Below, piece by piece: positions 39,466 to 62,623 of a stretch of DNA of 64,000 nucleotides (position 1 is its first letter; each line of letters begins with the position of its first letter). The DNA comes from Candidatus Latescibacterota bacterium (lineage in GTDB: Bacteria > Latescibacterota > UBA2968 > GCA-2709665): assembly GCA_965208835.1 (NCBI GenBank), contig OZ242358.1:1056001-1120000 (forward strand). Direction: 5' to 3'. The notes under the pieces were generated by a model. That model was not told where the DNA came from, searched no databases, and was given only the letters and a program-made list of their open reading frames with translations. Position numbers and translations under genes: made by a program.

Positions 39466-39552
39466 GGCAATACCACCTTATAGGCTTTTGCCTTTGGGGT
39501 GGGGGGTCTGACCTACAAGGTTTTTTGGCTAATATTGTTCAACAGACTTCTC

Positions 39553-42341: not shown

Positions 42342-42507
42342 GCTGCTTTAGCGTGCGTGCCGGCAACCGTGTGTCGCTGGAGAGACGGGGTTGCGGGTTG
42401 TGTACCTTTGCCCGGTGTCGGTAAAGGCTGGCTCGCGGCACGCAAAGGACCTGACAGGCACGCACAACGCCGACCATTGTCGCCAACACATTGGCTGCCT
42501 GTCTCAT
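42342..42507 (-). pseudogene. IS3-A OrfB N-terminal fragment
   Basis: MRQAANVLATMVGVVRACQVLCVPRASLYR, matching the IS3-B OrfB N-terminus. Confidence 0.85.
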
Positions 42508-42962
42508 GTGTCTTCGGCCCTCTCGCTGTTGTCGTTGTTCAACCCAAGCAGGTCTGAAAGTTTTTTTTGCACCTCAATGATCGCTTCGGCCTGCTCCAGC
42601 TTTTTCGAAAGACGCGCATTCTCAACCCGCAACCGAGCCAACTGTTTCTGTGACGGATCTGCAGCGGGACGACCTCGCTTCTTCGTCTCCAGTTGCCCCT
42701 GGTCGCGCTGCATCCGCCACTTGCTCACATAGGACGAATACAATCCCTCGCGACGCAAGACCGCTCCGATCTCGCCGGGCCTTGTACACGCGTCGACCTG
42801 CTTGAGGATACGCAACTTGTATTGCTTCGTGAACCGACGACGCTTAGCCTTCACCACTACCTCCGCATCGGGAACCTGCTCGCACAGTCCCGAAACATCC
42901 GTCTCCACAACCGCATCCTGCTTCCCGTTTCGACCAGGCGTTGCTACCGATACATCCCTCAT
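42504..42962 (-). CDS. IS3-A OrfA
   Basis: RRRFTKQYKLRIL HTH; A8 slippery run at 42561-68. Confidence 0.9.
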   Translation of the reverse strand: MRDVSVATPGRNGKQDAVVETDVSGLCEQVPDAEVVVKAKRRRFTKQYKLRILKQVDACTRPGEIGAVLRREGLYSSYVSKWRMQRDQGQLETKKRGRPAADPSQKQLARLRVENARLSKKLEQAEAIIEVQKKLSDLLGLNNDNSERAEDT

Positions 42963-43040
42963 CGTCTGGCGCTCCTTTGCCCTCTCAATTGTTGCTTAAT
43001 TTAAAAAGGGAATATGTCTCATTAATATAGGCACAGAGGG

Positions 43041-43891
43041 ATCCCGTGATGCACGGAATCGGGTGTGAGCAAGCCCAAGCCGCTGTGACGGTGTTGGGTG
43101 TTGTACCAGGGAAAGAAGCCCTGGAAGTAGGTACGCGCTTCCTCCGGACCGGTGAAGCGCCCGGGGTATGACGGCGCGTATTTGAGTGTTTTGAATTGGC
43201 TTTCGGAATAGGGGTTGTCGTCCGATACACGAGGTCTGCTGTAGCTGGCCAGGATGTCGAGGTCGATCAGCATTTGCGAAAACGTCTTCGCCTTCATCGG
43301 TCCGCCGCGATCCTGGTGCAACGTCAGTTGTCCGGGTTGAATGCCCTGCTTCGTGGAGGCGTTGGTAATCAGGCGCTTGGCCAGCGTGGCGCTCTCCCTT
43401 TTGGCGACCATCCAGGCCACCACGTATCGCGAGAACAGATCCAGCACGACGTAGAGGGGATAGGACACCCATTTTCGGGGTCCCGGCAACCTTGTGATGT
43501 CCCACGTCCAGACCTGGTTGGGCGCACTGGCCACCAACCGGGGTGGTTCGAGACGTGGATGACGGCGCTGGTCGCGGCGCTCGCGCACTTCCTGGGCATC
43601 GTGAAGCAGCCGGTACATGGTGCGGGTCGAGCAGACATACCGTCCTTCCTCCAGCAGCACGGCATACACGGCTGCCGGTGCCCGGTCCACGAAGCGATCC
43701 TCGTGCAGGATGTCCAAGACCCGGAGACGCTCCTGTGGAGAAAGTGCACGGGGCGAAGACCGTCGCGACCGACCCGGACACGTTGGATGTGGCTTGCGAT
43801 GACGGTATACAGAGGCTCGCGCCACACCCAATGCCCGGCATGCTGAAGCCAACCCGACACTCGGGGCGAGATGTTCGGCCGCACGTATCAT
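43041..43891 (-). pseudogene. IS3-B OrfB transposase, 5' part
   Basis: WTWDIT, HQDRG, DNPYSE; cut by IS3-A. Confidence 0.9.
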
Positions 43892-45917: not shown

Positions 45918-47243
45918 CTAAGGCCGCCATGAACGTGGTTGATGCCGGTAATTGATACCGGCGATCTTTTCTTCTTGGTCCTGCCAATAGTCGTGTACGA
46001 AAGCGACGATATGCACGGCATCCTCGACGACAATGTGGAGATGATTCTCGTAATACTTCGCGCGGGGGTATGTACGCCACCTGACGATTGGCCCCGGCAT
46101 TGACCACATGTTTTTATCACTGCGGAATACGTGGAGTTGGTCCGATGTCTCAAGCAGAATCCCAAAGTATGCCAGACCGGCCTTAATTACGTCGGCTTCT
46201 CTTATGAGCGGAACTGAACCAACAGAACCGAACGGAGATTCTCGGCGCGGTTGTTCGGCGTGATTCTTCGCCACTATGCCCGGGGGACTCGACGTACTGT
46301 CGGAAACCAGCAGCGCTTGAGGGGTCTCGGTTTCTGGCTCCGTGACGTTGTTCTGTACATACCGCATTATAGTCATTTCATTGCCGTGGATGCCGCAGAT
46401 CTTGTCTCCCGCGCCCCAACTCAATCCCGTCACGCTTCCAGTCTGAAGTATCTCGGATTCATCGATTTCGCGAACGAATTCCCGCCGGAGACGCCCCGAT
46501 CCGGTAGGATCGCGTTGCCAACGGAAGGCCAGCAGACACGATTCTCCAACCAGAGACGTGCTGTAGACACTGGCAAACACCCAGTCCGCATACGAAGAGT
46601 GTCGGCCCGTTAACTGGTTAACGCTGCCGTTTCTGTGGTTTGATTGTGGAAAGTACAGATTTCCACTGTTCGGAATATCATCGCGGGACCGGGGGTCGAA
46701 TTCGAAGAGCCCGTCGTCGCCAGCGGAAAGGGCGATTCCCCAGCGTGCCGCCGACGCCGAGAATGCTTGGGCGTCCCAATGCTTCTTCGGTCTGGAACTG
46801 ACTGGATAGCGCCGGTTATTTCTGTGTGCTGCGGCGGACCAGAATCCGTCATAGGTCACGAGATACAGGATATTGCTGAAGATCTCGGTATCTGTCGGAA
46901 GCTCCTTGACCGGATTGTCCTGTTCGCCATAAAGGGCTTCATTCAGTAATTCCGGAGTGATGACCGGAGTTTCCGCCCTGAGTCCCGCGAAATTCGCATT
47001 AAGAACCTTGCGATATCCGGGATCATCGAACACTGCGAGTACGTCAGGATGGTACAGCGAGTGTCCTCGCAACCAGGCCGCCTGGACTTCGAGAGACCGA
47101 CCGGCTTTTGGATATGCCAACTCGATCAGACTCTCCCAGTCGTACACGGAAAGGCGGCCATCATAATGCCAGAGATACAGGCGGCCACGATAGATCTGCA
47201 CATCCCAGAAATCCCCAGGAATCGAAAGCACTAAAGGTTGCAT
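45918..47243 (-). CDS. Hypothetical protein (441 aa, possibly beta-propeller-like)
   Basis: Long beta-rich ORF; start MQPL overlaps the upstream ORF end. Confidence 0.75.
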   Translation of the reverse strand: MQPLVLSIPGDFWDVQIYRGRLYLWHYDGRLSVYDWESLIELAYPKAGRSLEVQAAWLRGHSLYHPDVLAVFDDPGYRKVLNANFAGLRAETPVITPELLNEALYGEQDNPVKELPTDTEIFSNILYLVTYDGFWSAAAHRNNRRYPVSSRPKKHWDAQAFSASAARWGIALSAGDDGLFEFDPRSRDDIPNSGNLYFPQSNHRNGSVNQLTGRHSSYADWVFASVYSTSLVGESCLLAFRWQRDPTGSGRLRREFVREIDESEILQTGSVTGLSWGAGDKICGIHGNEMTIMRYVQNNVTEPETETPQALLVSDSTSSPPGIVAKNHAEQPRRESPFGSVGSVPLIREADVIKAGLAYFGILLETSDQLHVFRSDKNMWSMPGPIVRWRTYPRAKYYENHLHIVVEDAVHIVAFVHDYWQDQEEKIAGINYRHQPRSWRP

Positions 47244-47647
47244 CGCTTCCCTCCGGATATCTTCGTGATGTGGTGTTTCTCCAGGAGCCCTTGTGCGACC
47301 CAGACCTGAAGTACAGCGATAGGCGGACGATCCTTGGGTCGTCTCCGATAGTCCGCTGGATAGCCGTGCCAAATGGGCGTGGAACTGCCGTCAACAAACT
47401 TTCCGAAGAATAGTGATTCTCTGTAAACATTGATGCCGACAGTCCTGAGGCGACGACCACCAGACTCGGCCGCCCAGCAAGTCTGAGCTGGACTGCGCGC
47501 TGTTGGTAACGCAGCCTCAAATAAGGCTACTTCGTCATCGACCGGAATCGTCCACATGCAGCTCTCACGTGTCGGAAGTTTGCGGTGCTTTGGATGGATG
47601 AAATATCTGACATCTTTGCGGATACATATCGTATCACCAGGTTTCAT
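47231..47647 (-). CDS. Hypothetical protein with HPKH and WHGYP motifs
   Basis: 138 aa ORF coupled to the downstream gene. Confidence 0.7.
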   Translation of the reverse strand: MKPGDTICIRKDVRYFIHPKHRKLPTRESCMWTIPVDDEVALFEAALPTARSPAQTCWAAESGGRRLRTVGINVYRESLFFGKFVDGSSTPIWHGYPADYRRRPKDRPPIAVLQVWVAQGLLEKHHITKISGGKRCNL

Positions 47648-47842
47648 GGTAAGCGATTCTGCCTTTCGTCAATTTCTTCGTCGGTTCAACGACCGTTGAA
47701 TTTCACATTCATGACTGAAGGGTTGGGTAGTTATCTCGATCGAGAGGTTTTTTTGTTCCTACTTGAAATACGGTGAGTGTCTTTCGTAGTTGACCATGTC
47801 CGTCGTGCAGGGTGTTTCCCTCGATATTCCAGGCCGCAAGCG

Positions 47843-48077
47843 CTACATTGTATTACCGCAGCCCCTCCGCCAATCCTCGAAGTCGAGTTGGTTGCGAAGG
47901 AAGAGTTCGTATTGTTCGCCGTCGTCAGTGCTTGGATGGATGATTCCGTCCTCGCCATCGGTATCCAGGAATGCTTCCAATTCTCCTGGGTTAAGTACCG
48001 GAATTTTCATCACTGAGCGCCATCGTGCACGTGCTTCGTCGTAGACTTCGCCCCTGCGCAATTTCACGCTAAGATTG
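47843..48077 (-). pseudogene. AlbA/Schlafen-domain protein, 3' part
   Basis: Joins 56583 in frame (DDSVNL|SVKLRR) after TSD removal. Confidence 0.85.
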
Positions 48078-48227
48078 AGCACCTATATACTTGATTACCC
48101 GCGTGGTTTAAACGTAGGTGTTAGGGAACTAAGGGACAAGATTCATTTACTCAGTTTAAACTAAAAAACACAGCCCAGGGATATCCCTGGGCTTGTCTAA
48201 TGAAAAATAGAGAAATAAATTTATTGT

Positions 48228-48593
48228 TTATGCAGATTTAACCCTACGAGACAATTTATCTATATATGTACCCAAATGTGTGTTTAGAGATGAAAGTTCT
48301 TCAGAAATTTGTTTTAGGCACAAGAACATTTTTTCTTCAAGAGGGAGGGAACCTACACTCAACAATTCCTGAAAAAATATATCAATTTGGTGATCAGGAA
48401 TCACAATTGCCAATTCCCTTTGTTGAGCAGACTCAGATTTGTGTTCCAAGGTACCAGAACACAAAATTACCAAATCACGATTTGGTCCCAAAGCCAGCCG
48501 TACTTTTTGAAGGTTGGTCACCTGAAAGGATACGTGCGATACATCAAGCAATTGCAGAGTGTCGGCGTCATAGTCATCAGAAATAATAGACAT
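48228..48593 (-). CDS. Hypothetical cargo protein
   Basis: 121 aa ORF with RBS, directly downstream of 48611-49522. Confidence 0.65.
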   Translation of the reverse strand: MSIISDDYDADTLQLLDVSHVSFQVTNLQKVRLALGPNRDLVILCSGTLEHKSESAQQRELAIVIPDHQIDIFFQELLSVGSLPLEEKMFLCLKQISEELSSLNTHLGTYIDKLSRRVKSA

Positions 48594-48610
48594 TACTAGC
48601 TTCCTTATAT

Positions 48611-49522
48611 TCAGATAGGAAGTTCAGCTTGATCAGCGGCTGGTTCGTATTTAATTACTTTAACAATACCGTGTTGCGGATTTCCTCCTCTCCGAGTCTT
48701 ACCAATTATACGAACTATGGCCCTTAATTGATCTCCATTCCCACACTTAATCTCCCTATTTTTTATCTTTTCTCTAAACTCTTCATCAAGAATACGGAGT
48801 TGGTAACTCTGGCCTCGGTGTTGTATTCTCCAAGTATATTGATCTCTAAAAGCAGGACTAATCACCTCCATACCCCACATAAATTCATTCTTCGATTTAT
48901 TAATATCAGGAATATCCTTAATGTATTGATAATGTGTAATATCGCTTTTTTCAAATTTACAAGCAAATTGACCATTATCTGCTTTATTTATTTTAATTGA
49001 AGAGATATTTTCAGACTCAGTAATCTTAATAAAATCTTCAATATCAGTTCTTATTTTTTCATTTTCAAATATATCTTTTACCGCTGCTTCTGTTGTTATT
49101 ATCTCATCCTTAATATGAAATCTTGCATTACCTTCCGTATCTCGTGAAATTTTAGTTGGTTTTCGTGATCGCAATTCTGATAAAAGATTAAAAATTCCCT
49201 TGACTCTTTGTTGTGTTAAGTTATCGCGAACCAAATCTAATGCATTAACAGTCTTACTAGAAACTGCTTCTATTATTTCTGCACTATGGGACAATAATGA
49301 TCCTCCATATTCTACAAAGTTAATCAATAAATCAATTTCTAAACTACCTGGTCTAAATGCCTCAACTTCTAATTTGATCTTAATTTGTCTATTTGACACC
49401 ACACCCACAGTTTCTTGTATGATTGTATTCAATTTCATAAAAGCAGTTGCCACACAAAACACTTCTACAGAAGTGTTTTGTTTATTTTGTAATTCAAAAG
49501 CTATATTAAATCTCTTTTCCAT
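48611..49522 (-). CDS. Hypothetical cargo protein (possible C-terminal OB-fold)
   Basis: Long ORF in very AT-rich DNA; AFRPGSLEI and ILDEEF..GD.L motifs. Confidence 0.75.
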   Translation of the reverse strand: MEKRFNIAFELQNKQNTSVEVFCVATAFMKLNTIIQETVGVVSNRQIKIKLEVEAFRPGSLEIDLLINFVEYGGSLLSHSAEIIEAVSSKTVNALDLVRDNLTQQRVKGIFNLLSELRSRKPTKISRDTEGNARFHIKDEIITTEAAVKDIFENEKIRTDIEDFIKITESENISSIKINKADNGQFACKFEKSDITHYQYIKDIPDINKSKNEFMWGMEVISPAFRDQYTWRIQHRGQSYQLRILDEEFREKIKNREIKCGNGDQLRAIVRIIGKTRRGGNPQHGIVKVIKYEPAADQAELPI

Positions 49523-49607
49523 CAAACACTTTCCCAATAATTATCTTGCCAAAATCTATGTGTGGTCAATACCTACACCGACATTTTACAACACGCAAGA
49601 AGAAAAA

Positions 49608-49784
49608 TCAAGCCTTTTCATTACTATTCGACTGCAAAAACAACCACCCCACCTTTCCCCCGTGTTCCTTACAATTCGGAAACTGATCTCCCTTTACAAT
49701 CTTAGCTATATATCGACACGCACACCGAAAACCAAATACTCGATAATAACCGGTCACTTTACAAACTTCTCGTGAGAGTGGCAT
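49608..49784 (-). CDS. Small zinc-ribbon-like cargo protein (YjzC-like)
   Basis: TGYYR..C.C..KGDQFPNC..H..W pattern; GAGG RBS. Confidence 0.5.
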   Translation of the reverse strand: MPLSREVCKVTGYYRVFGFRCACRYIAKIVKGDQFPNCKEHGGKVGWLFLQSNSNEKA

Positions 49785-49792
49785 AAAAAACC

Positions 49793-49942
49793 TCACAATC
49801 GGCTAATCACCTCACGCAAATCTGGCAAGTTTTTATACACGTATATTCCAACACCAAGTATGAAAATGCAAACAAATAGTCGAAATATCCATATCAAAAT
49901 CTTGGAAATTTTAGAATCTGTCGTCCATTGATCCCGGCTCAT
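49793..49942 (-). CDS. Small single-pass membrane cargo protein
   Basis: One hydrophobic helix; AAGGGA RBS. Confidence 0.5.
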   Translation of the reverse strand: MSRDQWTTDSKISKILIWIFRLFVCIFILGVGIYVYKNLPDLREVISRL

Positions 49943-50354
49943 ATTTAATTCCCTTGTCGCTCTATTGGGACACCCGTATATTAAAAATACGGGAACCTTG
50001 AATGGAACAGTCATTCAAGATCCGTTCCCAATGATCACTGTTCGATCCGGGGAACCACTAACTTAAATCCTGCACGCTGTCACTCGTGAGGATAAAAGTT
50101 CGAGCCGTATCCGCCCAGGGTGCCAGCCCTGGGCTTTTTACTTGCCTTTTACTGGTTGAATAGCGAGTTTAAACTCGGGAGCGAGGCACCTAAGTTATTA
50201 CCTTCCTTCTTATATTCTGAAGAACCCATGTTCAACCGAATATTCCGCGGAAAAGAAGATTGGTAATAAGGACGTCCATGCCTCGCTCCAAACACAATAT
50301 ACTAAAACCAAGAGAGGAGTCAACCTATGTTAGCACTACACCATATCCACAGAA

Positions 50355-50582
50355 TTATTCGGGCTGGGCGAGCAAGACAAGCCCAGTCAGGAGCGTCAAG
50401 AATCGCTTTTCCTCTTCTTCTGATCCATCACTATGTAGTGGAAGCTGACCCATATGATTTCTTAACTGGTCGGCAATCTGAACTTTAGTTGCCGCATCTA
50501 AAACCTGAATAATGGAAATAACACCAAAATAGGACGCCGAAGCTATTTCCTCAACCGTGTAGATCTCTTCTGAATTTTCCAT
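50355..50582 (-). CDS. Small helical cargo protein (75 aa)
   Basis: GGAGG RBS preceded by three hairpins. Confidence 0.65.
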   Translation of the reverse strand: MENSEEIYTVEEIASASYFGVISIIQVLDAATKVQIADQLRNHMGQLPLHSDGSEEEEKRFLTLLTGLVLLAQPE

Positions 50583-50807
50583 AACCCCTCCAAAAAGATT
50601 TAACCCAAGTTCCCGTTAGGGTCTTGGGTTATTTTTATCGGCAGCCCCGAAACCGCCAGGTTCGAGGCTGCCTGTCCGAAACGCCCCCTGGTGAGTGGCA
50701 CCAGGTATTTAAAAGGTAGGTATTAAGAAATTAAAAGACAAGGTTGTTTTTATAATCATTAACTTGCGAAAGCGCCACCTATCAATTAAGTTAGGTGGCG
50801 CTTTTAT

Positions 50808-50881
50808 GGGGACGCTGGCAGGTGCCAGGGCAGCCGGACTTAGGATCTACTGCTGAGGGTTCGAGTCCCTACGTCTCCACA
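50808..50881 (+). ncRNA. tRNA-like RNA (anticodon position TAG)
   Basis: 7 bp acceptor GGGGACG/CGTCTCC, T-arm AGGG-TTCGAGT-CCCT, 7 nt loop CTTAGGA; non-canonical D-arm. Confidence 0.6.
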
Positions 50882-50939
50882 TTATTAATATACCATATCG
50901 ATTTAATCACTACAAGCTAATTTTTATACTATGAAATTC

Positions 50940-51146
50940 TCAATAGTCCCACTTACGCCAAAAATCACCAGACTTTTTGTATATAAAGAGAGTTAAGCCC
51001 AATCTGTAACAAATACGTTCCGCCTCCTCTTGGGCTTCCCGTTTAGTACGATATATGCTTATAGGAGCCACCTTTCCAGCGATTATATTTTCCCAGCGCC
51101 TATACTCTTGCGAATAACGCACTGACACACCTTGATTATCCAACAT
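50940..51146 (-). CDS. DUF2188-like small protein
   Basis: TKREAQEEA..LFIYKKSG pattern; AGGGAG RBS. Confidence 0.6.
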   Translation of the reverse strand: MLDNQGVSVRYSQEYRRWENIIAGKVAPISIYRTKREAQEEAERICYRLGLTLFIYKKSGDFWRKWDY

Positions 51147-51168
51147 ATTTGTCTCCCTTTTGTTTTTA

Positions 51169-52020
51169 CTATTCATAATGATGACAGTGTACGCACACAA
51201 TCAAAGGTTCACTCTTGTATTCACGGCCAGACCAATCTTTTGTTTTACCTACAATTTCGTACTTCCGATAGCGGTCTACCATAGGACCGACCAGTACTAC
51301 TTTTCCACTATTCATAGGAATAGTGTTCCAGGGGATATTTTCCTCACCGTCCACTAAAATAGTCCACTCTTTAATTCGTGGGCGTCGGCTCCACGTAATG
51401 ACTGCTTTAAGATGTGGACTTTCCCTTTCACTTTCCCAGCCCAAGCGGACCAGTATTGGGGGACCAGGAGTTTTGAATTCAGGGGTCACCACAGTATCGG
51501 CTTTTGCTGACGAATAGAACGGTAAGCCCGCCCCTTGATATACTGCATTAATCTCAATGATATATTCAATTCCAGCTAATAAAGGTTCAATTTTGAACGA
51601 GGTTGCGTTTCGCGACACATCGAAATACATAGTAAATTCATCTATTTTTGCTTTCAACGCTTTAGGGACAGGGTGGGGACTGTGAGTAATTTTATATTGT
51701 TTTAATATTCGTCCGGCAACAGCAGGTCTGTCGGGTGGTTCCCAGATCAATCTAACGTTACTAGGAGATACGGAATCTATCTGTGTGTTCCTTGGCGAAG
51801 GGTGGTTACGTTCTTTTTCACATTCGCCAGACCACGGTTGTCCAAATCGTTTAGCGAATTCTATGAAATCGTTAAAATCGTACTCAGTACCAAAATCCCG
51901 GGAGAATAAAATAAAGTCAGCAAAATCGACCTTTCGATCATCATTCAAATCCCAACAAATTGCAGAATTGTTGGCCTCACCTGAACTAATCAGTAAGAGG
52001 CAAGCCAAGACCCCCAACAT
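51169..52020 (-). CDS. Secreted protein with EF-hand/dockerin-like motif and fibronectin type III domain
   Basis: Signal peptide, DLNDDRKVDFADF, PSPRN..LIWEPP..Y..LLAGIEYII. Confidence 0.75.
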   Translation of the reverse strand: MLGVLACLLLISSGEANNSAICWDLNDDRKVDFADFILFSRDFGTEYDFNDFIEFAKRFGQPWSGECEKERNHPSPRNTQIDSVSPSNVRLIWEPPDRPAVAGRILKQYKITHSPHPVPKALKAKIDEFTMYFDVSRNATSFKIEPLLAGIEYIIEINAVYQGAGLPFYSSAKADTVVTPEFKTPGPPILVRLGWESERESPHLKAVITWSRRPRIKEWTILVDGEENIPWNTIPMNSGKVVLVGPMVDRYRKYEIVGKTKDWSGREYKSEPLIVCVHCHHYE

Positions 52021-52298
52021 ATCCGTCCCCCTGTGGCCCTTGCAGAGCCAAAATGAAAAACGGACCCTTCCCAGACGACAGGAAAGATCCGTTTTGTGTT
52101 AAGGCTTACCGACATCCCCTCCTGTCGCCCTTGCAGAGCGATGCATCTTCAGCTAACTAAAAGGTGTCGGGCCTTGCAAGCATCACAGGAGGGTGAGCCG
52201 TGCCTATTCCCTGGGAGTTCAGGTATTATATTCAGCACGAAACCCGACATAAATCGGTCCCTCCGGATACTTGCGCTGAACAAGTTACAGAAACAAAC

Positions 52299-52327
52299 TT
52301 GACAACGCAACCAAAATTAAGTATGGT
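52299..52327 (+). promoter_or_regulatory. Sigma70-like promoter of UDG-like copy B
   Basis: TTGACA-17-TATGGT. Confidence 0.6.
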
Positions 52328-52430
52328 TTTTGAAATACAAGGTTTGCAAGACCTTAGAGATTAATATAATTGAAAGCACACAAAAGGCGTGCGCTTTCAA
52401 TTATACCATTCCATTTCTCAGGAGGGAGAA

Positions 52431-52985
52431 ATGAAACGACAGGATATTATTAAACGTCGGAGGCAATTCAAGATTCGGGGATTCGGATACAAGACATTGA
52501 CAGAAGTCGGGTTAGACGGAGACTATGTTTCACCGATACAAAAAATCTCGAATAGCGCCACCGGTCCCATATTAATCGGGAAACATTGGAACAGTGCCAA
52601 AAACGCACTACAGAAAAAAGACCTGCTGTTAGAATTCGGGTACGATGTCTTCTCACGTTTTAATAAAGTTCTGGATGCGGCATTGAAATGTGCGGATATG
52701 AACCGTGCAGACGTATACATCACACAAGCCTTTCATCTACTACCTGGAACCGATAAAGGCCAATCCATCAAACCTAAACATATTTATCAATCTTTTCGAG
52801 AAATCACAATACATGAACTTGACGGACGTCCCGTTATTGCAATGGGTGGTACTGCACAAAAGGCTTGTAATCGCTTCAGTATTGAATATATTCCAGTTCC
52901 CCACCCGAGTCATCGTACAATGTCGATAGAAAACCGTGTTATCGCATTACGAAATGCATTATATAAATCTCGGCAAATATCATAG
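52431..52985 (+). CDS. Uracil-DNA glycosylase-superfamily-like cargo protein, copy B
   Basis: Roughly 70% identical by eye to 41057-41617. Confidence 0.65.
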   Translation: MKRQDIIKRRRQFKIRGFGYKTLTEVGLDGDYVSPIQKISNSATGPILIGKHWNSAKNALQKKDLLLEFGYDVFSRFNKVLDAALKCADMNRADVYITQAFHLLPGTDKGQSIKPKHIYQSFREITIHELDGRPVIAMGGTAQKACNRFSIEYIPVPHPSHRTMSIENRVIALRNALYKSRQIS

Positions 52986-53143
52986 ATACCGAAATACTTT
53001 TCTTGTAAAGTAACTCCAAACACCATTAATTTCTCCCGAAAAGATTCGTCTTCCCTCTCCCCCAGGAAGGCGAATCTTTTTTATTGACTTTTATAGCTTT
53101 CTTGTCTACAATCCCCAAACACCCTAAACCGTGGAGGTAACTT

Positions 53144-53359
53144 ATGTTTTCATTGTTCAAGTGGTATTGTTGCCGATACATGCTCAGGGTAGTTTGCGTT
53201 GATTGCAGTTACGGAGATTGCAAAGCCACAATTTTCCATGTCTGTCAGGACAAGAAATACAGACCCAACCGGCCAGGCATGGGATGCGAAAAGGAGGCGT
53301 GTCTCAACGCTCGCAGAAAACACGGTATTCCTAAGACCTTACATAAAATCTACTCATAA
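53144..53359 (+). CDS. Small Cys-rich cargo protein
   Basis: TTGACT-17-TACAAT promoter at 53084-53112, GGAGG RBS, downstream hairpin. Confidence 0.55.
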   Translation: MFSLFKWYCCRYMLRVVCVDCSYGDCKATIFHVCQDKKYRPNRPGMGCEKEACLNARRKHGIPKTLHKIYS

Positions 53360-53412
53360 CAAAAGCCCGGAACAGTTGTTCCGGGCATTATTTCTTAAAA
53401 GGAGGATTTTCA

Positions 53413-53658
53413 ATGTCTAAAGAAAATTGGTCTATAGAAGACTTAGTATTTGGAACTCATGACATGTTTATTGCGCTACTAGAGATTCTTGAGGAACCTG
53501 TAAAAACTGATTTTCGTCTGCGTGTGCTTGCTCGGGCTCAGCGCCTACGTCATAGTGCAGATTTTGAAGTACGGTTAGAACATAGGCAATCTTTGATTCA
53601 TACGGCTGAGCTACTTGAAGACTTTTCGGAATACTTACTGCGTCGTGAGAGCTCATAA
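53413..53658 (+). CDS. Small helical cargo protein (81 aa)
   Basis: AAAGGAGG RBS preceded by a hairpin. Confidence 0.7.
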   Translation: MSKENWSIEDLVFGTHDMFIALLEILEEPVKTDFRLRVLARAQRLRHSADFEVRLEHRQSLIHTAELLEDFSEYLLRRESS

Positions 53659-53686
53659 TAATTCTCCCTATAATAAGATATATCTT

Positions 53687-54142
53687 TCAACTCCCATTCC
53701 GTTCAAACACTACAACAATAAGAACTGTCTCCAAACTGTTATTCAGCATCTGTTGAATCTCGCTTATATCCTCACCAGCACTCCGCATATTTTCTATAAA
53801 ATAGACACCTGTCATCATAAGGTTTAATTTTGAATCCGAAACCTCAAAAGACCACACAAACTTATTCCCGCTGGGCTGCGTCATCGTCAACTTGTTATTC
53901 TCTGTTGTCCAGGTTCCCTTGTCTCCAACATTATCCTCCCAACTCCCATCTTCTCGAAACTCCACACTACGCAAATTGTCAAAAAATCCCAACGCAATAT
54001 CGGTCCCGCCAAAGATCGCCTCGAATCCCGGAAATCTAGTTTCAGATAGAACCCACTTCCCAACAAGAGGGTCTACAGGTTCAACGGCTTTATCTTTACA
54101 ACCGATCAGCAACAAGACAATAATCAATAGTGTGTGTCTCAT
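53687..54142 (-). CDS. Lipocalin-like lipoprotein
   Basis: Lipobox LIGC, LVGKWVL, GTW. Confidence 0.7.
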   Translation of the reverse strand: MRHTLLIIVLLLIGCKDKAVEPVDPLVGKWVLSETRFPGFEAIFGGTDIALGFFDNLRSVEFREDGSWEDNVGDKGTWTTENNKLTMTQPSGNKFVWSFEVSDSKLNLMMTGVYFIENMRSAGEDISEIQQMLNNSLETVLIVVVFERNGS

Positions 54143-54375
54143 CACTCAACCCCCTTTTTTGTGCCACAATACACGGAATTCTCCGCCCAATCTTCATATT
54201 TAGTGCTGATACGTGATCGTGGGCTGTGGGTTCTACAAATACGATTCCACGGCCCTTCCGATTTAAACATTTCACCACACTTGAGACAGCGACGTTTTTT
54301 CCGTGTCGAAGCATCCCCCCTGCACAGATCGTTATAGTGAGGAACACTTTTGGAACTTTGATTATTTCTTCTCAT
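54142..54375 (-). CDS. Small zinc-finger protein
   Basis: RRCLKCGEMFKSEGPWNRIC; stop overlaps the next start (TGATG). Confidence 0.6.
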   Translation of the reverse strand: MRRNNQSSKSVPHYNDLCRGDASTRKKRRCLKCGEMFKSEGPWNRICRTHSPRSRISTKYEDWAENSVYCGTKKGVE

Positions 54376-54508
54376 CTGTTGTCTTATCTCTTTTCTTTTT
54401 CGTCTTTGGAGCACTATTCGCCGCAAATGGTCGACGCTGTTTTAAGATCGCTCGACCAACCTCTTCCGGCGTGAGATCGGTTTTGAATACTTCGTCCTTT
54501 TTCTTCAT
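54362..54508 (-). CDS. Small basic protein coupled to the transposase
   Basis: Start overlaps the transposase stop (ATGA); TPEEVGRAILK. Confidence 0.55.
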   Translation of the reverse strand: MKKKDEVFKTDLTPEEVGRAILKQRRPFAANSAPKTKKKRDKTTDEKK

Positions 54509-55416
54509 GCTATCAGCTCCTGGTATTGGAGTCGTTGACCTCGCATCCCCTGGGCTATCGTCTTCATGAATCCGTAAACGCCCAGGGGTCGCGCATTGTG
54601 TCGGGCTGTGAACTCCCTCACGTATAGCCAAAGGTGTTTCGGACTCATTACGTGATACGTTCCCATATACCCGCGCTTGAACAGGCTCCAGAAGTTTTCT
54701 AACGAATTGGTATGGACATCCCCCTTAACATACTGCTTTGCGCTGTGTTTGACAAATTCGTGATAATAGACTCCTGTTAGCATCTTATATGCGTTATGCT
54801 CATCGCTGTAAACCTGCATATCCCTGTAGACCCATTCGTAAACTGGTTCGCACAAAGTATCATGACTCATATCGTCTAAGACCTGTGTCCTGATTTTCTT
54901 CGTACCTCTTTCATAGACACCGATCACAGGGACTTTCTCAGCCCATCCCCTCTTGAATTTCTGGCCACTGACCCGATGTTTATTCGATTTCTTACCACCC
55001 ACAAAGGTTTCGTCTACCTCAACTGTGCCCAAGAATTTCCGCTTTAGGTCCAAACACGCGTGTCGTATTCGATGCCCTAAGTACCAAGCCGTTTTCTGTG
55101 TTATGTCCAGGTCTTTTGCCAACTGTGTCGAGGAAATCCCCTTGGGTCGAGATATTAAATATATGGCAAAAACCCACTTACGAAAAGACAAATGAGACCG
55201 GTGTAGCAGATTACCTGTCCTTACCGAAAAGTCCATCCGGCAACTGCGACATCTATACGGTAACGGCTTCCGAGTTGGTCGCGCCTGAATATCCTTGCTC
55301 CCGCAACCTGGGCAACAAACACCTTCCGGCCAAAGTAACTTTTCAAACCAAGCCTCCGCTGAAGCCTCGTCCGGGAACATCTCGTGCAATTTGAATATCG
55401 AAATTTCTTTTGACAC
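54505..55416 (-). CDS. IS1595-family transposase
   Basis: CPGC..CRSC, VEVDETFVGGK, YSDE, VKH, HTNSLENFWSLFKR. Confidence 0.95.
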   Translation of the reverse strand: MSKEISIFKLHEMFPDEASAEAWFEKLLWPEGVCCPGCGSKDIQARPTRKPLPYRCRSCRMDFSVRTGNLLHRSHLSFRKWVFAIYLISRPKGISSTQLAKDLDITQKTAWYLGHRIRHACLDLKRKFLGTVEVDETFVGGKKSNKHRVSGQKFKRGWAEKVPVIGVYERGTKKIRTQVLDDMSHDTLCEPVYEWVYRDMQVYSDEHNAYKMLTGVYYHEFVKHSAKQYVKGDVHTNSLENFWSLFKRGYMGTYHVMSPKHLWLYVREFTARHNARPLGVYGFMKTIAQGMRGQRLQYQELIA

Positions 55417-55474
55417 GGGAACCTCCTTTCGATATTATGTAGTAGAAAGGGCTTCGTCTGCAAGGAGGCTCGTC

Positions 55475-55576
55475 ATGCCAAAACCACGACGAAGAAAAAT
55501 AAGAAAACGTATTATTAAAATAATCCGAATTGGACCAACAACTATAACAATACGAGTTCCATTTATACGCCGATAG
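55475..55576 (+). CDS. 33 aa cationic peptide
   Basis: AAGGAGG RBS; MPKPRRRKIRKRIIKIIRIGPTTITIRVPFIRR; flanked by a 20 bp inverted repeat. Confidence 0.55.
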   Translation: MPKPRRRKIRKRIIKIIRIGPTTITIRVPFIRR

Positions 55577-55694
55577 TACCTATTTTGACGAAGCCCTTTC
55601 CACTACTTTATAGGGCGTGGCACGACTTATTACTGGCCCTAATAATATATATTAAGGAGTTCCAAAAGACAAGTTATTTTTTCGAGGAGGCAAA

Positions 55695-55973
55695 ATGTCT
55701 AATCTTAATAACAGCGATACCTTAAATATTCCTAATTGTTTTTCATTTATTGAAACACATGGTCATCCACTTACACAACGGGCTGCTCATAAATTTAAAA
55801 ACCATTTAAATACAAATATCGTTTCTATTCAATTTTGGTGGTATGATGCAAAAACAGTATCAGATAGAGCTATTTGTATTCGTGGCGCACTCCGTAGAAT
55901 TGTTAAAAATAATAGAGAAAAGGGGAGATGCAGTAACCAATTTAAGGCATTGTATCAAATCAAATATCAGTAA
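55695..55973 (+). CDS. Hypothetical cargo protein
   Basis: GAGGAGG RBS. Confidence 0.6.
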   Translation: MSNLNNSDTLNIPNCFSFIETHGHPLTQRAAHKFKNHLNTNIVSIQFWWYDAKTVSDRAICIRGALRRIVKNNREKGRCSNQFKALYQIKYQ

Positions 55974-55997
55974 ACGAAAAATCTCATAAGGAATAAA

Positions 55998-56204
55998 ATG
56001 CCCAACTATTACGTAAACCCAAACCCTCAACCAAATGGGGATCAAGAAGTACATAAATACGGATGTTCTTGGTTACAATTAGTTCGAAATCCTATATTTC
56101 TTGGTAATTGGGACAGTTGTTTTCCAGCCGTTAAGGAAGCAATATATCAAGGATATAATGCAAATGGTTGCGCTCATTGTTCGCGCCCCTGCCATACTCG
56201 ATAA
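55998..56204 (+). CDS. Small Cys/His-rich hypothetical protein
   Basis: YYVN...NGDxEVH..GC...LG...C...NGCxxC...CH pattern resembling small mobile-element proteins. Confidence 0.7.
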   Translation: MPNYYVNPNPQPNGDQEVHKYGCSWLQLVRNPIFLGNWDSCFPAVKEAIYQGYNANGCAHCSRPCHTR

Positions 56205-56455
56205 GCTCTTTCCCACTCACTTTCATTATCATATATTGTTATAATCCTACCATCCTCTAAGTCGATTCGGCTTAATATCTTTTTGTGACCACAACAACTA
56301 GCAATAGTAAAGACCCCACCTGCGTTGAGTGCCGCCACTATCTGATGTATGCAACGGTCAATGCATTGAACACGACCTTTAAGTGGCATACATACCTGAT
56401 TCCTATAAGTCTTCTTCCCACCAGGTAAATCGCAAAATTCACAACCTCCTGACAT
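56174..56455 (-). CDS. Small phage-type protein with TxASCCGH motif
   Basis: IDxCI..IVAALN..G..TIASCCGH; GGGGAG RBS. Confidence 0.65.
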   Translation of the reverse strand: MSGGCEFCDLPGGKKTYRNQVCMPLKGRVQCIDRCIHQIVAALNAGGVFTIASCCGHKKILSRIDLEDGRIITIYDNESEWERAYRVWQGREQ

Positions 56456-56582
56456 AAATAGACTCCCCTACCTTCCCATAACCCCTTTATTTACAACAGT
56501 TAAGCCAATTTTTATGGGATAAAAATACCTAAACCGTTGTAAATAAAGGGTTTATGGGCGGGTAATTAAGTATATGGGTGCC

Positions 56583-57492
56583 TAAGATTGACAGAATCAT
56601 CGCCGCTGCTCGAGGCATGGAATCTTTGGACAGCGTAGATTATGCTGTTACCCTCGTAGAAATAGAACCGTCCCGGGCCACGCGGCTCCCAATCTGGCGC
56701 CACCATTGACTTCTTGCGGTCGTCAAAGCCGACGTAACGAATACGGCGCAACAGGGTCTGGTGAAAACGGAGTTCATAGTATCCCGCATAATTATTCTTG
56801 GATACTAATTCTCCGCGGGTCCATTCCTCGTCACGAGCTATATGATCTTCCGCGTCAGTGATTCTTATCGTAAACTCAGGAAATGTTGTGTGGTAGTAGC
56901 TCGCATTTACGCCGAAACCGGGAATTGGTGACCAGTAATCCGGTTCACTCAAATACCGTTGTATTCTTTCGAGCGGTGGTATATCCAAGCCGAAGCGCTC
57001 CCGCCACATTCGTTCAATCTCGTGGGCTTGCGTAGCTTCATCTACAGGAGTGTTTGTGTCGCAAACGCGCGAATATATGTGGTGAGCGCGGATTTTTCCA
57101 AAACGTTGTGTAAGATAGTAGGGCTTATGGGGAGCATCCTCAATTACCAAAACATCCAGTAGTTCATCCCCAAATTCGATTTCTTTCAGGTAAAATTCAG
57201 GGACCCTCGATTGAAAGAACTTTCTCGCGTTGTCGCGGAATAGACCCGCTATGTCTGCCTGTGTTCTTCGGCTTGGATCTTCGTTTATCGGATGGACAGA
57301 ATAGTCGCTGTCGTCAATCCCATAAATCAAGAATCTATCACCATCGTGGTTGGCGTTCGCAAGGCACAGGACATCGTGAACAAGATCAGCTTTGTTTTCA
57401 TGATGTTCACGTTTGAAGTCCCAATATGTACCCTCGGCTCTTCGACTTATGAGGGTTGAGATGGTCGTGTGAAACCCGCCCTCGATAGTCAT
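56583..57492 (-). pseudogene. AlbA_2/Schlafen-domain protein, 5' part (interrupted)
   Basis: EGTYWDFK..DVLCLAN..FLIYGIDD. Confidence 0.85.
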
Positions 57493-57865
57493 TTGACCTC
57501 TAAGCGCTGGGAGTTGGCCCGCCGTTTACCGCTGTTATGTGGCGGTTCAGACGGGGACAACCGGTTTTTCGCGCCGTAGCGGCGCCGTCTACGTACGACG
57601 ATTAGTATGGTATTCTCAGTTGGCGATTGACTGGCTAAGGCGTCGAAGAAACAGACAGGTATCGGTTCTAAGCGGACGATCCATCCACAGCTCCGAATGT
57701 CTCATAAAAGCATCCGCCTTAATTCATCATCACAGTCGATTTCGGTAGCATTCAACGTCAGGATGAAACCCACCTGCTCTTTCCAGCCCATCTCTCCGCT
57801 AAATTCATTTCACTTGAGTTGGACTCGGAATTGCCTATCTAATTCGCATACAAAGGAGCCTATCG

Positions 57866-58831
57866 ATGCCCTGCGAAATTCCAATTCTTGTTGAAGAAAC
57901 TGACATAGATCAAATCTCAAGATCACCGATATATGAAATCATCCAGCACATATTTGGCTCAATTATTGCGATTGCACCGGAGAAGACTAACGAGATACTC
58001 GGCCTGATATTTGGGCACGATGTGAAGTTTAGCTTGGAGAACAGGGAAAGATTCGATTTCGCCGTAAAACTATCTGAAAGCAAGATCAGTGTGTCCCTGC
58101 AGGGACTCGAATTTTTGTGGGCTACAAGCTATGCCTACTATGTCATTTATCAAACCGCTGCACTACCGGAAAACCAAAGTAAGGGAGTTCTTTCCCTCTT
58201 AGACCATCCAGAGACGTGTACTGCCGCGAAGCTTCTGCAGTGGGCTGTGGATCGAGAAACTTCCAAAGTAGCAAACATACCGTGGCCATCGGACTGTCCC
58301 AAACCTCAGCGTTCTGCTGAGTCATCGGGTCTCAGCAATTCGAACGCGACTTGGGTCGCGCAGGAGATGTTTTTGTGTGCTGTTGGATGGATCCTTCACC
58401 ACGAGCTTGCCCACATAAGGCTTGGGCATCGAGATATCCCGTTGGATTCACTGAAGGAGGAAACCGAGGCTGACAAACTAGCTACCGAGACGCTCGTTCA
58501 AGGTATCACAGACAAAGATCATCTTTTTAAACGCGGTCTCGGGATCACGAATGCACTATTGGCACTCTGTTGCCTTGATATGGAAACAAGGGACGTGCAG
58601 TGGTCCAATATTCCTCGCAGCCATCCAAATGTGGCAGAAAGGTTGTTTAGAGCGTTGGGTCATCAAGCTCTTGCCAATCAGTCCGATGTCTATACCTTTG
58701 CTGTATATATCCTTAAGCTACACTTCGATCATCTCGGCATTGAGATTCATCCACGAGATTACGCTGACGTGAAGTGCTGTCTAAGTGACTACTGCTATGA
58801 ATTGCAGGAGTGGCAAAGACGGTCGAAATAG
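57866..58831 (+). CDS. Lit-like (peptidase U49) phage-exclusion metalloprotease
   Basis: WILHHELAH (HExxH), EETEAD, SHP...RL. Confidence 0.72.
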   Translation: MPCEIPILVEETDIDQISRSPIYEIIQHIFGSIIAIAPEKTNEILGLIFGHDVKFSLENRERFDFAVKLSESKISVSLQGLEFLWATSYAYYVIYQTAALPENQSKGVLSLLDHPETCTAAKLLQWAVDRETSKVANIPWPSDCPKPQRSAESSGLSNSNATWVAQEMFLCAVGWILHHELAHIRLGHRDIPLDSLKEETEADKLATETLVQGITDKDHLFKRGLGITNALLALCCLDMETRDVQWSNIPRSHPNVAERLFRALGHQALANQSDVYTFAVYILKLHFDHLGIEIHPRDYADVKCCLSDYCYELQEWQRRSK

Positions 58832-62100: not shown

Positions 62101-62623
62101 TTTTTCAACTAGAATACCTATTGTTTCCGCACCAATACCGAGGAGTTCGTCTGCGATTTCCAGTGCTTCTCCATCATCCTTATGTAGGTGTTTGGCGAAG
62201 AATTCTCGAAGCGTATTCTGGGCTACCGTTTTTTCGAGGTTATTGACGTCGCTACTAGGCGAATCCTGGGATTCCCAAGCTAGCCTAGCGAGTGCTCGTT
62301 CACGATTTGCATCGCTCAATCGGCCAATGGTCGAGGCACGAGCGTAAGCGGCTTTTTCGCGTCGCCGAGGCTGTTCTTCTAACAGCAGACCGGTCAATTT
62401 GTCGTATGCTTTAAATCGACTACGTGGAAGCTGTATACCTTGAATAACGAGAGCAATAAGGCCATTTAGCATTAATGGGACCTGCGCTAGGCGGGCAAGT
62501 CGGGTATCGCGGTGAAAGTCCCTGATGTGTTCAGTGGCTTCTGCTTTCGCGCTCGCTTGCCTCATCGCGATGGCTTCGCCGTCTTCATTCTGAGGAGCAA
62601 AGGAATTCGACCGATGAATGTAC
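59134..62623 (-). pseudogene. NACHT/STAND-like NTPase with HEAT-like repeats, 3' part (cut by IS21)
   Basis: LAQVPLML and FGFLHRSLQEFLAA motifs; no Walker A; frame open up to the IS21 end. Confidence 0.8.

Follow-up and report, generated by a model that had tools for sequence, protein, structure and literature searches.

Within a gene of a sponge-associated Candidatus Latescibacterota bacterium lies a segment of 8,505 bp that holds a single transposase gene and many other short reading frames. The question arises as to whether it arrived as one unit, and what kind of mobile DNA it represents. The segment occupies positions 48078-56582 of the window, that is, of the whole 64,000-nt stretch of DNA analysed (Table 1), and is present in one copy in the source genome. 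Very probably it is one intact IS1595-family 'transporter IS' (tIS), a term used for elements of this family with passenger genes (Siguier, Gagnevin and Chandler 2009, as cited in PMC11891212, PMC3129680 and PMC9330008).

Table 1. The IS1595 element and the gene that it interrupts: features and positions in the window
Feature	Position	Strand	Remarks
AlbA_2/PDC-S50 gene, C-terminal part	47843..48077	-	
Left TSD copy TAAGATTG	48070..48077	.	G006 empty site holds a single copy
Left TIR AGCACCTATATACTTGATTACCCGC	48078..48102	+	24-nt core 48079-48102 identical at one G014 element end; 1 mismatch to G006
Terminator-like hairpin ending leftward cargo operon	48172..48193	-	
Cargo p121	48228..48593	-	No family match; missing from G006 element
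Cargo 308 aa, candidate single-gene defence protein PDC-S42	48611..49537	-	Also NCBIfam LAPAL_fam, phrog_3243
Overlapping small cargo p73 (49793-50014) and p62 (49608-49796)	49608..50014	-	G006 aa identity 94-96%; pN/pS 0.51 and 0.20, few changes
Cargo p75	50355..50582	-	G006 98.7% aa; 3 synonymous, 1 non-synonymous changes
10-bp GC-rich hairpin, then TTTT	50772..50801	.	Directly before tRNA-like element
Non-canonical tRNA-shaped element	50808..50879	+	7-bp acceptor stem, G3·U70, A73, T-loop TTCGAGT
Cargo p86, weak DUF2188 match	50940..51200	-	PF09954 9e-4, below cut-off; 76% aa homologue on G006 contig C14
Cargo 283 aa, secreted fibronectin-type-III (fn3) protein	51169..52020	-	Signal-peptide-like N-terminus; PF00041 2.1e-7; G006 89% aa, pN/pS 0.43
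41-codon upstream ORF and terminator-like hairpin	51990-52115; 52057-52095		Between RBS boxes
Two copies of 22-nt box covering RBS (52118-52139, 52027-52048)	52027..52139	-	
Structured 5' leader RNA, sRNA-Xcc1/C4 type	52150..52252	-	RF02221 35.5 bits; own model R1 112.9 bits
Cargo 198 aa, divergent uracil-DNA-glycosylase-superfamily (UDG-like)	52389..52985	+	PF03167 4e-7; top Atlas match 0.96, to UDG-like clusters
Small cargo Cys-rich p71 (53144-53359) and p81 (53413-53658)	53144..53658	+	p71 homologues 63-68% aa in G009 and G004; p81 without support, replaced in G006
Bidirectional hairpin between p71 and p81	53365-53386		
Cargo 152 aa, lipocalin-like lipoprotein	53687..54145	-	PF13648 2.6e-6, 28.7 bits vs 22.4; 4-nt overlap of its start with p94; replaced in G006
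p94, small basic Cys-rich protein	54142..54426	-	Directly downstream of transposase; phrog_13335 1.3e-5; 12 synonymous, 1 non-synonymous changes to G006
IS1595-family transposase, 303 aa, Zn ribbon and DDE domain	54505..55416	-	PF12762, PF12760, NF033547; sole transposase inside element
Window-specific palindromic insert, 174 bp	55439..55612	.	Between transposase RBS and promoter region; missing from G006 and G014; fold z -5.6
Right-arm cargo p92 (55695-55973 +), p68 (55998-56204 +), p93 (56174-56455 -)	55695..56455	.	p68: phrog_4298 1.4e-17; convergent p68/p93 pair again in G052, p93 again in G058; p92 without support; block replaced in G006 from start codon onward
Subterminal palindrome, diverged inverted copy of right end	56458..56575	.	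55-nt arms 76% complementary; G006 has one too
Right TIR	56558..56582	-	22/25 match to left TIR, inverted
Right TSD copy TAAGATTG	56583..56590	.	
AlbA_2/PDC-S50 gene, N-terminal part	56583..57492	-	

The 25-nt terminal inverted repeats (TIRs) and the exact 8-bp target site duplication (TSD) that the original prediction had placed around the segment were confirmed. With up to three mismatches allowed, the 64-kb window contains exactly two occurrences of the 24-nt core of the TIR, compared with 0 expected from 100 shuffles. The TSDs of related elements are also 8 bp long, CAAACTAT in the congeneric genome G006 and TAATATAA in G014, whose element of 3,155 bp has the same ends as that of the window. 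In silico excision of the element and one TAAGATTG copy yields, as foreseen, a single open frame of 378 aa; the N-terminal 308 aa of the restored protein match Pfam SLFN_AlbA_2 (1.1e-9) and PADLOC PDC-S50 (1.3e-78). The gene adjoins that of a Lit-like exclusion protease.

A search for an empty site had been proposed, and G006 supplied one. At its locus L103 the AlbA_2 gene is uninterrupted and contains one TAAGATTG, all 8,505 bp being absent together: alignment of the left flank ends at position 2385 and that of the right flank begins at 2392, with an 8-bp overlap that reads ...cacgcTAAGATTGacagaatc... The TSD, the in-frame restoration and this empty site together indicate that the element inserted as a single unit with its one transposase, as predicted. 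Conversely, G006 has a sister element at a different site, about 8.3 kb long if its two parts, which begin two contigs, are continuous, as a 9-nt homology overlap and the matching TSD suggest. The source genome is empty at that site, the flanks meeting with an 8-bp overlap (C1:5155175-5155182).

The transposase matches the ISXO2/IS1595-type DDE domain (PF12762) at 3.3e-37 over profile positions 3-153 of 153, the N-terminal zinc ribbon (PF12760) at 2.1e-7 over residues 15-60 (31.2 bits, cut-off 25.4), and NF033547 with 174.6 bits (cut-off 75). According to PMC8101967, all IS1595 groups except IS1016 have a zinc-ribbon N-terminus. Between the window and G006 the protein is 100% identical and the gene 97.65%, with 21 synonymous and 0 non-synonymous changes, and the G014 transposase has 81% aa identity to the window copy. 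The nearest relatives are copies in MAGs.

Could the 8.5 kb instead be a pile-up of independent insertions, made up of nested ISs, MITEs or an island? Mobile elements abound in the surrounding region (IS3-family and Mu-like transposases among others), the related locus L116 has a 3.3-kb element nested inside one of 10.1 kb, and the 174-bp palindromic insert is unique to the window copy. This insert, however, is single-copy in the genome. Moreover, no internal TIR pair with an 8-bp TSD, and hence no nested transposon, was found within 48078-56582, which holds only one transposase; the outer TSD is exact and everything between its copies is missing together in G006, while the sister element, at another site, has a largely common interior. 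A pile-up is thus very unlikely, this reading being already largely refuted. As for a prophage remnant or integrative island with incidental IS1595 ends, five cargo ORFs match PHROG families, every one of unknown function, and the NCBIfam label of the 308-aa protein is 'putative phage structural protein'. The same protein, however, also fits a candidate defence family (2.6e-40), profile searches of the ORFs revealed no integrase, terminase, capsid or tail family, the phage (50,697 records) and plasmid collections gave no DNA match, and the boundaries are TIRs and an 8-bp duplication rather than att sites. We consider such an origin extremely unlikely; the 'phage-like' label once given to the cargo is weak in view of these PHROG and phage searches, while the claim that the element does without an integrase holds.

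A chimeric join of foreign low-GC DNA into a gene during assembly would fit the GC content (about 40% in the element and about 50% in its flanks), and the source genome, a single contig of metagenome type, has an estimated contamination of 5.5%. Against this stand the exact TSD, the restored frame and the reciprocal empty sites in two genomes. Furthermore, Logan contigs from two runs read through both junctions with 0 mismatches, although the two runs represent one sample, possibly the assembly's own source, and are not independent confirmation. The probability that misassembly, a risk named at the outset, explains the locus is negligible.

Taking the segment as a single transporter IS, we counted 15 non-overlapping cargo ORFs of 62-308 aa within its ends, in agreement with the predicted number. 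Nine are backed by a family match, by a homologue beyond the sister element or by clear purifying selection; for three, conservation is limited to the sister element, and three are without support. The 308-aa protein aligns with positions 4-299 of the 302 of PADLOC PDC-S42 (PDLC05015), scores 131.8 bits with NF053583 (cut-off 60) and 4.8e-29 with phrog_3243, and has a homologue of 67% aa identity in G002; by its profile match it is a candidate defence protein. Paralogues of the UDG-like gene adjoin IS1595 transposases at 41057-41617 of the window, in G011 and in G006. The idea that individual ORFs have their own expression signals was borne out in part: terminator-like hairpins are enriched in the element (15 vs 6.9 +/- 2.9 in shuffles), but promoter-like sites are not (25 vs 20.7 +/- 4.3).

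These 15 ORFs lie inside the ends and are unrelated to transposition, and a sister copy elsewhere has common cargo; the element belongs to the known class of transporter IS and is not the new kind of transposon that had been proposed. Cargo is in fact usual among its relatives. The recommended search for these, delimited by TIRs and TSDs, succeeded at 25 of 56 genome loci and 11 of 45 metagenome loci with related transposases, giving 36 elements of 1.2-10.1 kb. The majority have cargo, including DNA methylases, nucleases, M10 peptidases, aminoacyl-tRNA synthetases and RadC. Three measure 9.0-10.1 kb, and the presence of 5-10 kb elements in this sample speaks against the view that passengers are usually only a few.

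How does the cargo change? Backbone blocks are 93-99% identical to those of the G006 element, from which eight block replacements or indels set the window copy apart. The changed blocks are bounded by a terminator hairpin, by stop codons and by a start codon that follows a conserved RBS, so that whole genes are swapped; no common motif was seen at the eight junctions, nor any attC-like repeats. Genes are thus replaced at conserved scaffold points. The prediction of a gene-shuttling element stands in that cargo differs between copies; that cargo also accumulates is an inference of that prediction. At 39466-42341 the window holds another IS1595 element, with a transposase only 32% identical; the leader RNA, a UDG-like gene (79% nt) and a 44-nt segment (93%) are common to both.

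This leader is a relative of sRNA-Xcc1 by fold and motifs, but not a member by the Rfam rule, its score against RF02221 (E 1.6e-4 on 551 nt) staying below the gathering threshold of 53 bits. Among 11 sequences, 13 of 24 pairs show compensatory (two-sided) change, and the covariation score of 0.398 (0.166 in shuffles) is reached by 0 of 500 shuffles. In the alignment, 92.4% of cells are paired, compared with 30-43.5% in slid controls. Because the sequences were aligned by means of the model, these values are biased towards the structure. Ten of the eleven copies found lie within about 5 kb of an IS1595 transposase, and eight within about 2.3 kb, an association inflated by the preselection of most searched loci for such a transposase; in an unbiased scan of the source genome, one of three strong copies was away from any detected transposase. 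A gene for a secreted or membrane protein starts 20-45 nt downstream of the leader. Duplexes of the leader with boxes 52118-52139 and 52027-52048 have z values of -3.8 and -1.9. Of 13 leader-RBS pairs, 6, every one of them from this genus, pair better than shuffles do (at most 4/200). The pairing is weak (8/200 each) for the G014 copy and the window fn3 box, and fails in the three proteobacterial copies, the window's small element and the third copy of the source genome. In the subtype of this element, the leader can pair with the RBS and so probably controls cargo translation in cis.

The tRNA-like fold of the original prediction is present, with an extended anticodon-type arm (loop CUUAGGA) and without CCA, but it is not a tRNA call: ARAGORN found 0 tRNA genes in 47000-57500, and the Rfam scores for tRNA-Sec (21 bits, cut-off 47) and tmRNA (23 bits) are both sub-threshold. 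Compared with G006, the element shows two double compensatory changes; with our model R2, real tRNAs score about 25 bits.

By analogy with its family, the single zinc-ribbon DDE transposase would recognise the 25-nt ends and insert the whole unit by an 8-bp staggered cut; in this genome the insertion inactivated the candidate anti-phage gene AlbA_2/PDC-S50. The conserved scaffold comprises the transposase and its promoter region, the tightly conserved 94-aa protein that comes after them, the UDG-like gene, the leader RNA with its RBS box, and intergenic hairpins; some 15 passenger genes are attached to it, in both arms. Judging from the positions of the junctions, the likeliest route of whole-gene replacement would be homologous recombination with IS1595 elements having the same segments, and a site-specific recombinase plays no part. 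It is possible, although we rather doubt it, that the lineage is an integrase-free cassette platform with fixed expression slots, in which recombination swaps genes even across lineages with transposases about 32% identical, which spreads secreted host-interaction and anti-phage genes among sponge symbionts, and of which the leader RNA and possibly the tRNA-shaped element, of alanine type, are functional parts. Such slots may lie beside the left end, at the promoter and RBS upstream of the transposase, and behind the leader.

The locus provides a clean natural example of how a simple insertion sequence with a single transposase can carry along 7.6 kb of passenger DNA in one piece, with filled and empty sites both kept across two sister species. 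It also illustrates gene-by-gene turnover of cargo on a conserved scaffold, and one candidate anti-phage gene is lost to the element as another arrives with it.

Two named tIS, tISCpe8 and MTnSag1, have 25-bp repeats and 8-bp direct repeats (PMC5704250). The window element resembles such tIS in its single IS1595-type DDE transposase with an N-terminal zinc ribbon, its inverted ends of about 25 bp, its 8-bp duplication and the passengers inside. It is, however, much larger, with about 15 passengers in both arms as compared to one resistance gene, and its passengers are of unknown, defence or host-interaction type rather than antibiotic resistance genes. The cargo-bearing IS1595 groups in ISfinder reach up to about 7.9 kb.

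The C4 antisense RNA of phages P1 and P7 (RF01695) has a region complementary to the downstream ribosome-binding site, and the window leader has a predicted region of this kind. With sRNA-Xcc1, located upstream of symE in integron cassettes of Xanthomonas (bioRxiv 10.1101/2025.06.18.660453), the leader shares the position upstream of a gene, carriage by a mobile element, and a fold with conserved unpaired AAUAnAAUA...GAAUA motifs that align to RF02221 positions 1-87. It differs from both RNAs in that it occurs in IS1595 elements of uncultured sponge-associated bacteria, upstream of secreted or membrane protein genes, and scores below the Rfam threshold of RF02221. As for the cargo, it recalls phage morons, being made of small autonomous genes, several of them hairpin-terminated, between conserved backbone segments; here, however, the carrier is a transposon, without phage backbone or phage DNA match. 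Finally, integron cassettes are likewise interchangeable single-gene units at fixed points of a mobile platform, and some have the same RNA family, whereas in this IS1595 element, with neither integrase nor attC-like repeats at its eight junctions, exchange seems to be based on homology of the scaffold.

The transporter IS (tIS) of the IS1595 family at 48078-56582 moved as one unit. At its left boundary, ...cacgc TAAGATTG runs into AGCACCTATATACTTGATTACCCGC, and at its right boundary GCGGGTAATTAAGTATATGGGTGCC is followed by a second TAAGATTG and acagaatc. The two terminal inverted repeats (TIRs) agree at 22 of 25 positions in inverted orientation, and their 24-nt core, allowing up to 3 mismatches, occurs exactly twice in the 64-kb window and in none of 100 shuffles. 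In silico removal of positions 48078-56590 leaves a single frame of 378 aa, the first 308 residues of which match Pfam SLFN_AlbA_2 and the PADLOC candidate defence family PDC-S50 (1.3e-78). The ends, the target-site duplication (TSD) and the restored AlbA gene of the original prediction are confirmed in every respect. When the window was scanned for any 24-nt inverted end pair (18 or more matches) with the same 8-mer on both sides, just two elements were found, this one and an unrelated IS1595 element at 39466-42341. The interior, with a GC content of about 40% against about 50% in the flanks, contains a sole transposase gene.

The original prediction had also proposed looking for an empty-site allele, and one is present in G006, a congeneric genome. 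Its AlbA_2 orthologue (locus L103, 86% identical) is free of any insertion and has an open frame of 389 aa; the alignment of the window's left flank ends there at base 2385 and that of the right flank begins at base 2392, the shared overlap being exactly 8 bp, and the site reads ...cacgcTAAGATTGacagaatc..., with one TAAGATTG only. The AlbA_2 gene of G014, a third relative, is intact as well, its target sequence having diverged. G006 carries a sister element at another site, the left and right parts of which form the starts of contigs C4 and C68; the two parts together give about 8.3 kb, and CAAACTAT flanks both sides. In the window's genome the flanks of this insertion are joined, overlapping by 8 bp at C1:5155175-5155182; this is the reciprocal empty site. 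Insertion as a single unit, as predicted, is supported by these two sites. The G014 element (3,155 bp, TSD TAATATAA) has the same ends as the window element, and the transposases of the two are 81% identical.

Both junctions of the window element are crossed without mismatch by Logan contigs from two runs of one sample; this sample may be the source of the assembly, so that the result is a consistency check, not independent proof. In another run, Logan contigs contain an element of the G006 type, each loose end of which carries CAAACTAT. The runs listed as holding these elements include no RNA data set. The empty-site joint was not found in the contigs of the runs holding the window element, which is uninformative on population heterogeneity, as contigs drop rare variants.

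The insertion site lies in a defence-type neighbourhood, in which the gene next to the interrupted PDC-S50/AlbA_2 gene encodes a Lit-like exclusion protease; two large ORFs and transposases of IS3 and Mu type are found nearby (see table). The second IS1595 element of the window, a smaller tIS, also holds an 82-aa ORF. Its removal in silico restores a 362-aa IS3-type orfB frame, and it therefore sits inside an IS3-family element.

Coordinates of features in the window and in other extracted loci (L numbers)
Feature	Sequence	Position	Strand	Remarks
IS1595 tIS	window	48078-56582		8,505 bp
Its transposase	window	54505-55416	-	IS1595 Zn ribbon and DDE domain
tRNA-shaped element	window	50808-50879	+	7-bp acceptor stem with G3·U70; A73; canonical T-loop
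Leader RNA	window	52150-52252	-	Rfam sRNA-Xcc1 match over full model, 35.5 bits (threshold 53)
Subterminal palindrome	window	56458-56575		inverted, diverged copy of right end; also in G006
Defence-type neighbourhood	window	56566-58831 and 45918-47647		
Lit-like exclusion protease	window	57866-58831		PADLOC Lit 1.1e-72
Large ORFs	window	45918-47372; 59134-62565		no Pfam family match
IS3- and Mu-type transposases	window	43022-43891; 62778-63998		
Second IS1595 tIS	window	39466-42341		2,876 bp; TIR GGCAATACCACCTTATAGGCTTTT (22/24); TSD GCTGCTTT
Its transposase	window	40148-41083	+	
Its UDG-like gene	window	41057-41617	-	convergent
Its Xcc1-type leader	window	41776-41909	+	
orfA of surrounding IS3-family element	window	42504-42962		
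Third leader copy	L113	1501-1642	-	G000 (window's genome) C1:4364480-4364621
tmRNA gene of G006	L074	6227-6586	-	tag ADDTYAMAA
tRNA-shaped element, Dehalococcoidia MAG	L022	9053-9119	-	67 nt; 7-bp acceptor stem; T-loop TTCGAGT; A73
IS1595-type element, metagenome contig	L116	9868-19990		10,123 bp; TSD CCTTAAGT; TIR 23/24
Element nested in it	L116	15062-18329		3,268 bp; different ends; TSD CTTGAAAG
CGCGCCTATATACTTGACAGACCC sub-lineage	L047	2538-12157		
CGCGCCTATATACTTGACAGACCC sub-lineage	L049	2574-7902		
CGCGCCTATATACTTGACAGACCC sub-lineage	L051	9956-18992		
CGCGCCTATATACTTGACAGACCC sub-lineage	L056	9962-14433		
CGCGCCTATATACTTGACAGACCC sub-lineage	L058	9953-15257		

The idea that such an element shuttles genes is borne out by the comparison with G006, since cargo differs between the two copies by whole-gene replacement. 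Eight differences interrupt sequence that is otherwise 93-99% identical. The 1,473 bp adjoining the left end, with p121 (cargo ORFs are named by their length in aa) and the PDC-S42 gene, are replaced by 798 bp in G006, and p81 with the lipoprotein gene by 344 bp. The UDG-like gene is swapped from codon ~28 on, the G006 allele being only 50% identical in protein, and replacement of the right-arm genes sets in precisely at a start codon, behind a conserved ribosome-binding site. G006 has two insertions, one of 1,185 bp whose 337-aa product weakly matches an EF-hand-like motif (E 3e-4, short of the Pfam cut-off) and one of 188 bp after the transposase stop codon; the remaining differences are a 121-bp indel and a 174-bp palindromic insertion in the window element, upstream of the transposase. 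The latter is single copy in the window's genome, which lends no support to a MITE. Blocks are bounded by a terminator hairpin, start codons and stop codons, and no shared repeat was seen at the eight junctions. The two IS1595 elements of the window share the UDG-like gene (79% at the nucleotide level), a 44-nt segment (93%) and the leader RNA, while their transposases are only 32% identical; in a related genome, G011, a small-type transposase (84%) is found with the same convergent UDG-like gene. Judging from these sequence comparisons, the simplest reading is that cargo may be exchanged by recombination between elements, at shared scaffold segments.

The cargo of the window element consists of 15 ORFs of 62-308 aa, an ORF being considered supported if it matches a family, has a homologue beyond the sister element or is clearly under purifying selection. 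The 308-aa protein matches PDC-S42 (2.6e-40), NCBIfam LAPAL_fam and phrog_3243; others are a secreted 283-aa fn3 protein, a 152-aa lipocalin-like lipoprotein and a divergent 198-aa member of the UDG superfamily, for which a PDB sequence search returned nothing meaningful. Among the smaller ORFs, p86 weakly matches DUF2188 and has a homologue (76%) on a different G006 contig, p71 has 63-68% homologues in two related genomes (G009 and G004), and p68 (phrog_4298, 1.4e-17) forms with p93 a convergent pair that is also present in G052. Directly downstream of the transposase, p94 differs from its G006 counterpart by 12 synonymous changes and 1 non-synonymous change. Conservation of p62, p73 and p75 is restricted to the sister element, and p121, p81 and p92 are without support. 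The transposase itself shows 21 synonymous and 0 non-synonymous changes between window and G006, which suggests that the gene is functional in both lineages.

Short ORFs, several with their own promoter and hairpin, had been described as phage-like cassettes gathered without an integrase. The ORFs are there, and terminator-like hairpins are enriched about two-fold (15 against 6.9 +/- 2.9 in shuffles), but promoter-like sites are not (25 against 20.7 +/- 4.3). Family profile searches found no integrase, in agreement with the prediction, and no phage structural family either. At the DNA level, nothing similar turned up among 50,697 phage and 72,556 plasmid records, and the phage-like character is weak.

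For the leader RNA, a model (R1) built from seven copies in five genomes finds eleven copies, including three in proteobacterial IS1595 elements (L037, L041 and L038). In the eleven-copy alignment, which was fitted to the model, 13 of 24 pairs show compensatory changes, and 92.4% of cells pair against 30-43.5% with slid partners. In every copy the leader ends 20-45 nt before an ORF start, and among the proteins encoded behind it are lipoproteins, M10 peptidases and others with a signal peptide or of membrane type. The third copy in the window's genome (61.3 bits with R1) lies away from any detected IS1595 transposase; downstream of it are small ORFs and a gene for a CPBP-like membrane protein. 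In the window element, a 22-nt box that overlaps a ribosome-binding site comes after the leader; then follow a 41-codon ORF, a terminator-like hairpin and the box once more, this time on the ribosome-binding site of the fn3 gene. Pairing between leader and box is predicted: for 6 of 13 leader/start pairs, all six from this genus, no more than 4 of 200 shuffles do as well, and pairing beyond shuffles is absent in the proteobacterial copies and the long-insert subtype. In a C4-type mechanism, the antisense RNA is made from the same transcript as its target. Excerpts of two reports place sRNA-Xcc1 upstream of symE in Xanthomonas integron cassettes (bioRxiv 10.1101/2025.06.18.660453) and, adjoining C4 and isrK RNAs, in Xylella islands (PMC12189769). 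An RF02221 search of 31 related genomes gave weak hits (~27 bits, ~130 nt, one per genome) and missed known copies because only 99 of ~450 candidates were scored; its hits were not used. Rfam matches to MicC, PsrR1, F6, GmglnB1, MIR5998 and CRISPR-DR25, all far below threshold, were judged spurious, as was mir-3140 (56472-56560), which is the subterminal palindrome.

The tRNA-like fold is present as predicted, but ARAGORN does not call it as a tRNA. It is of alanine type, with a 5-bp hairpin at the D position and an extended arm of anticodon type whose 7-nt loop is CUUAGGA; CCA is not encoded. The G006 copy has 9 differences in 79 positions: in two stem pairs both partners have changed, two single changes leave pairing intact and another disrupts a pair of the T-stem. 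R2, the model built for this element, finds only these two copies. A 'tmRNA' match (50808-50882, 23 bits) is the same element; the true tmRNA gene of G006 lies 2.4 kb from the sister insertion. Another tRNA-shaped element, also without an ARAGORN call, lies inside a 3,358-bp IS1595 tIS of a Dehalococcoidia MAG (L022). With R2 it scores like ordinary tRNAs (24.7 bits), and it has no specific relationship to the element of the window; there is no evidence of a specific family.

Relatives were surveyed at loci around transposases 26-81% identical to the window's. Delimitation by TSDs, as originally proposed, succeeded for 25 of the 56 genome loci and for 11 of the 45 metagenome loci (two metagenome elements duplicate other records). 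The lengths of these 36 elements range from 1,195 to 10,123 bp; 31 exceed 2 kb, nine are of 5-10 kb, and three (9,037, 9,620 and 10,123 bp, as delimited by TIRs and TSDs) are longer than the window element. Among the genes carried are those for DNA methylases with nucleases, M10 peptidases, aminoacyl-tRNA synthetases, RadC and HTH regulators. In the metagenomes, the transposase nearest to the window's shows 51% identity, and a degenerate TIR pattern had 0 matches in metagenome contigs. The longest element contains a nested one (L116). A distinct sub-lineage with ends CGCGCCTATATACTTGACAGACCC (4.5-9.6 kb) is mostly found on contigs labelled Saccharibacteria; a Replic_Relax protein always adjoins its transposase, often along with RadC and an HTH regulator, and two of its elements carry aminoacyl-tRNA synthetase genes.

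Noteworthy side features are the gene-wise cargo turnover across distant IS1595 lineages, the sRNA-Xcc1/C4-type leader and the alanine-type tRNA-shaped element; a literature search covering few relevant journals returned no paper that reports a leader RNA for IS1595 elements or slot-by-slot exchange of their cargo. The new transposon class of the original prediction is not upheld: excerpts of PMC11891212, PMC3129680 and PMC9330008 trace the tIS concept to Siguier et al. 2009, and the window element is a large, well-preserved member of this known kind. Its 25-nt ends and 8-bp TSD are like those of MTnSag1 and tISCpe8, for which an excerpt of PMC5704250 gives 25-bp ends and 8-bp repeats.
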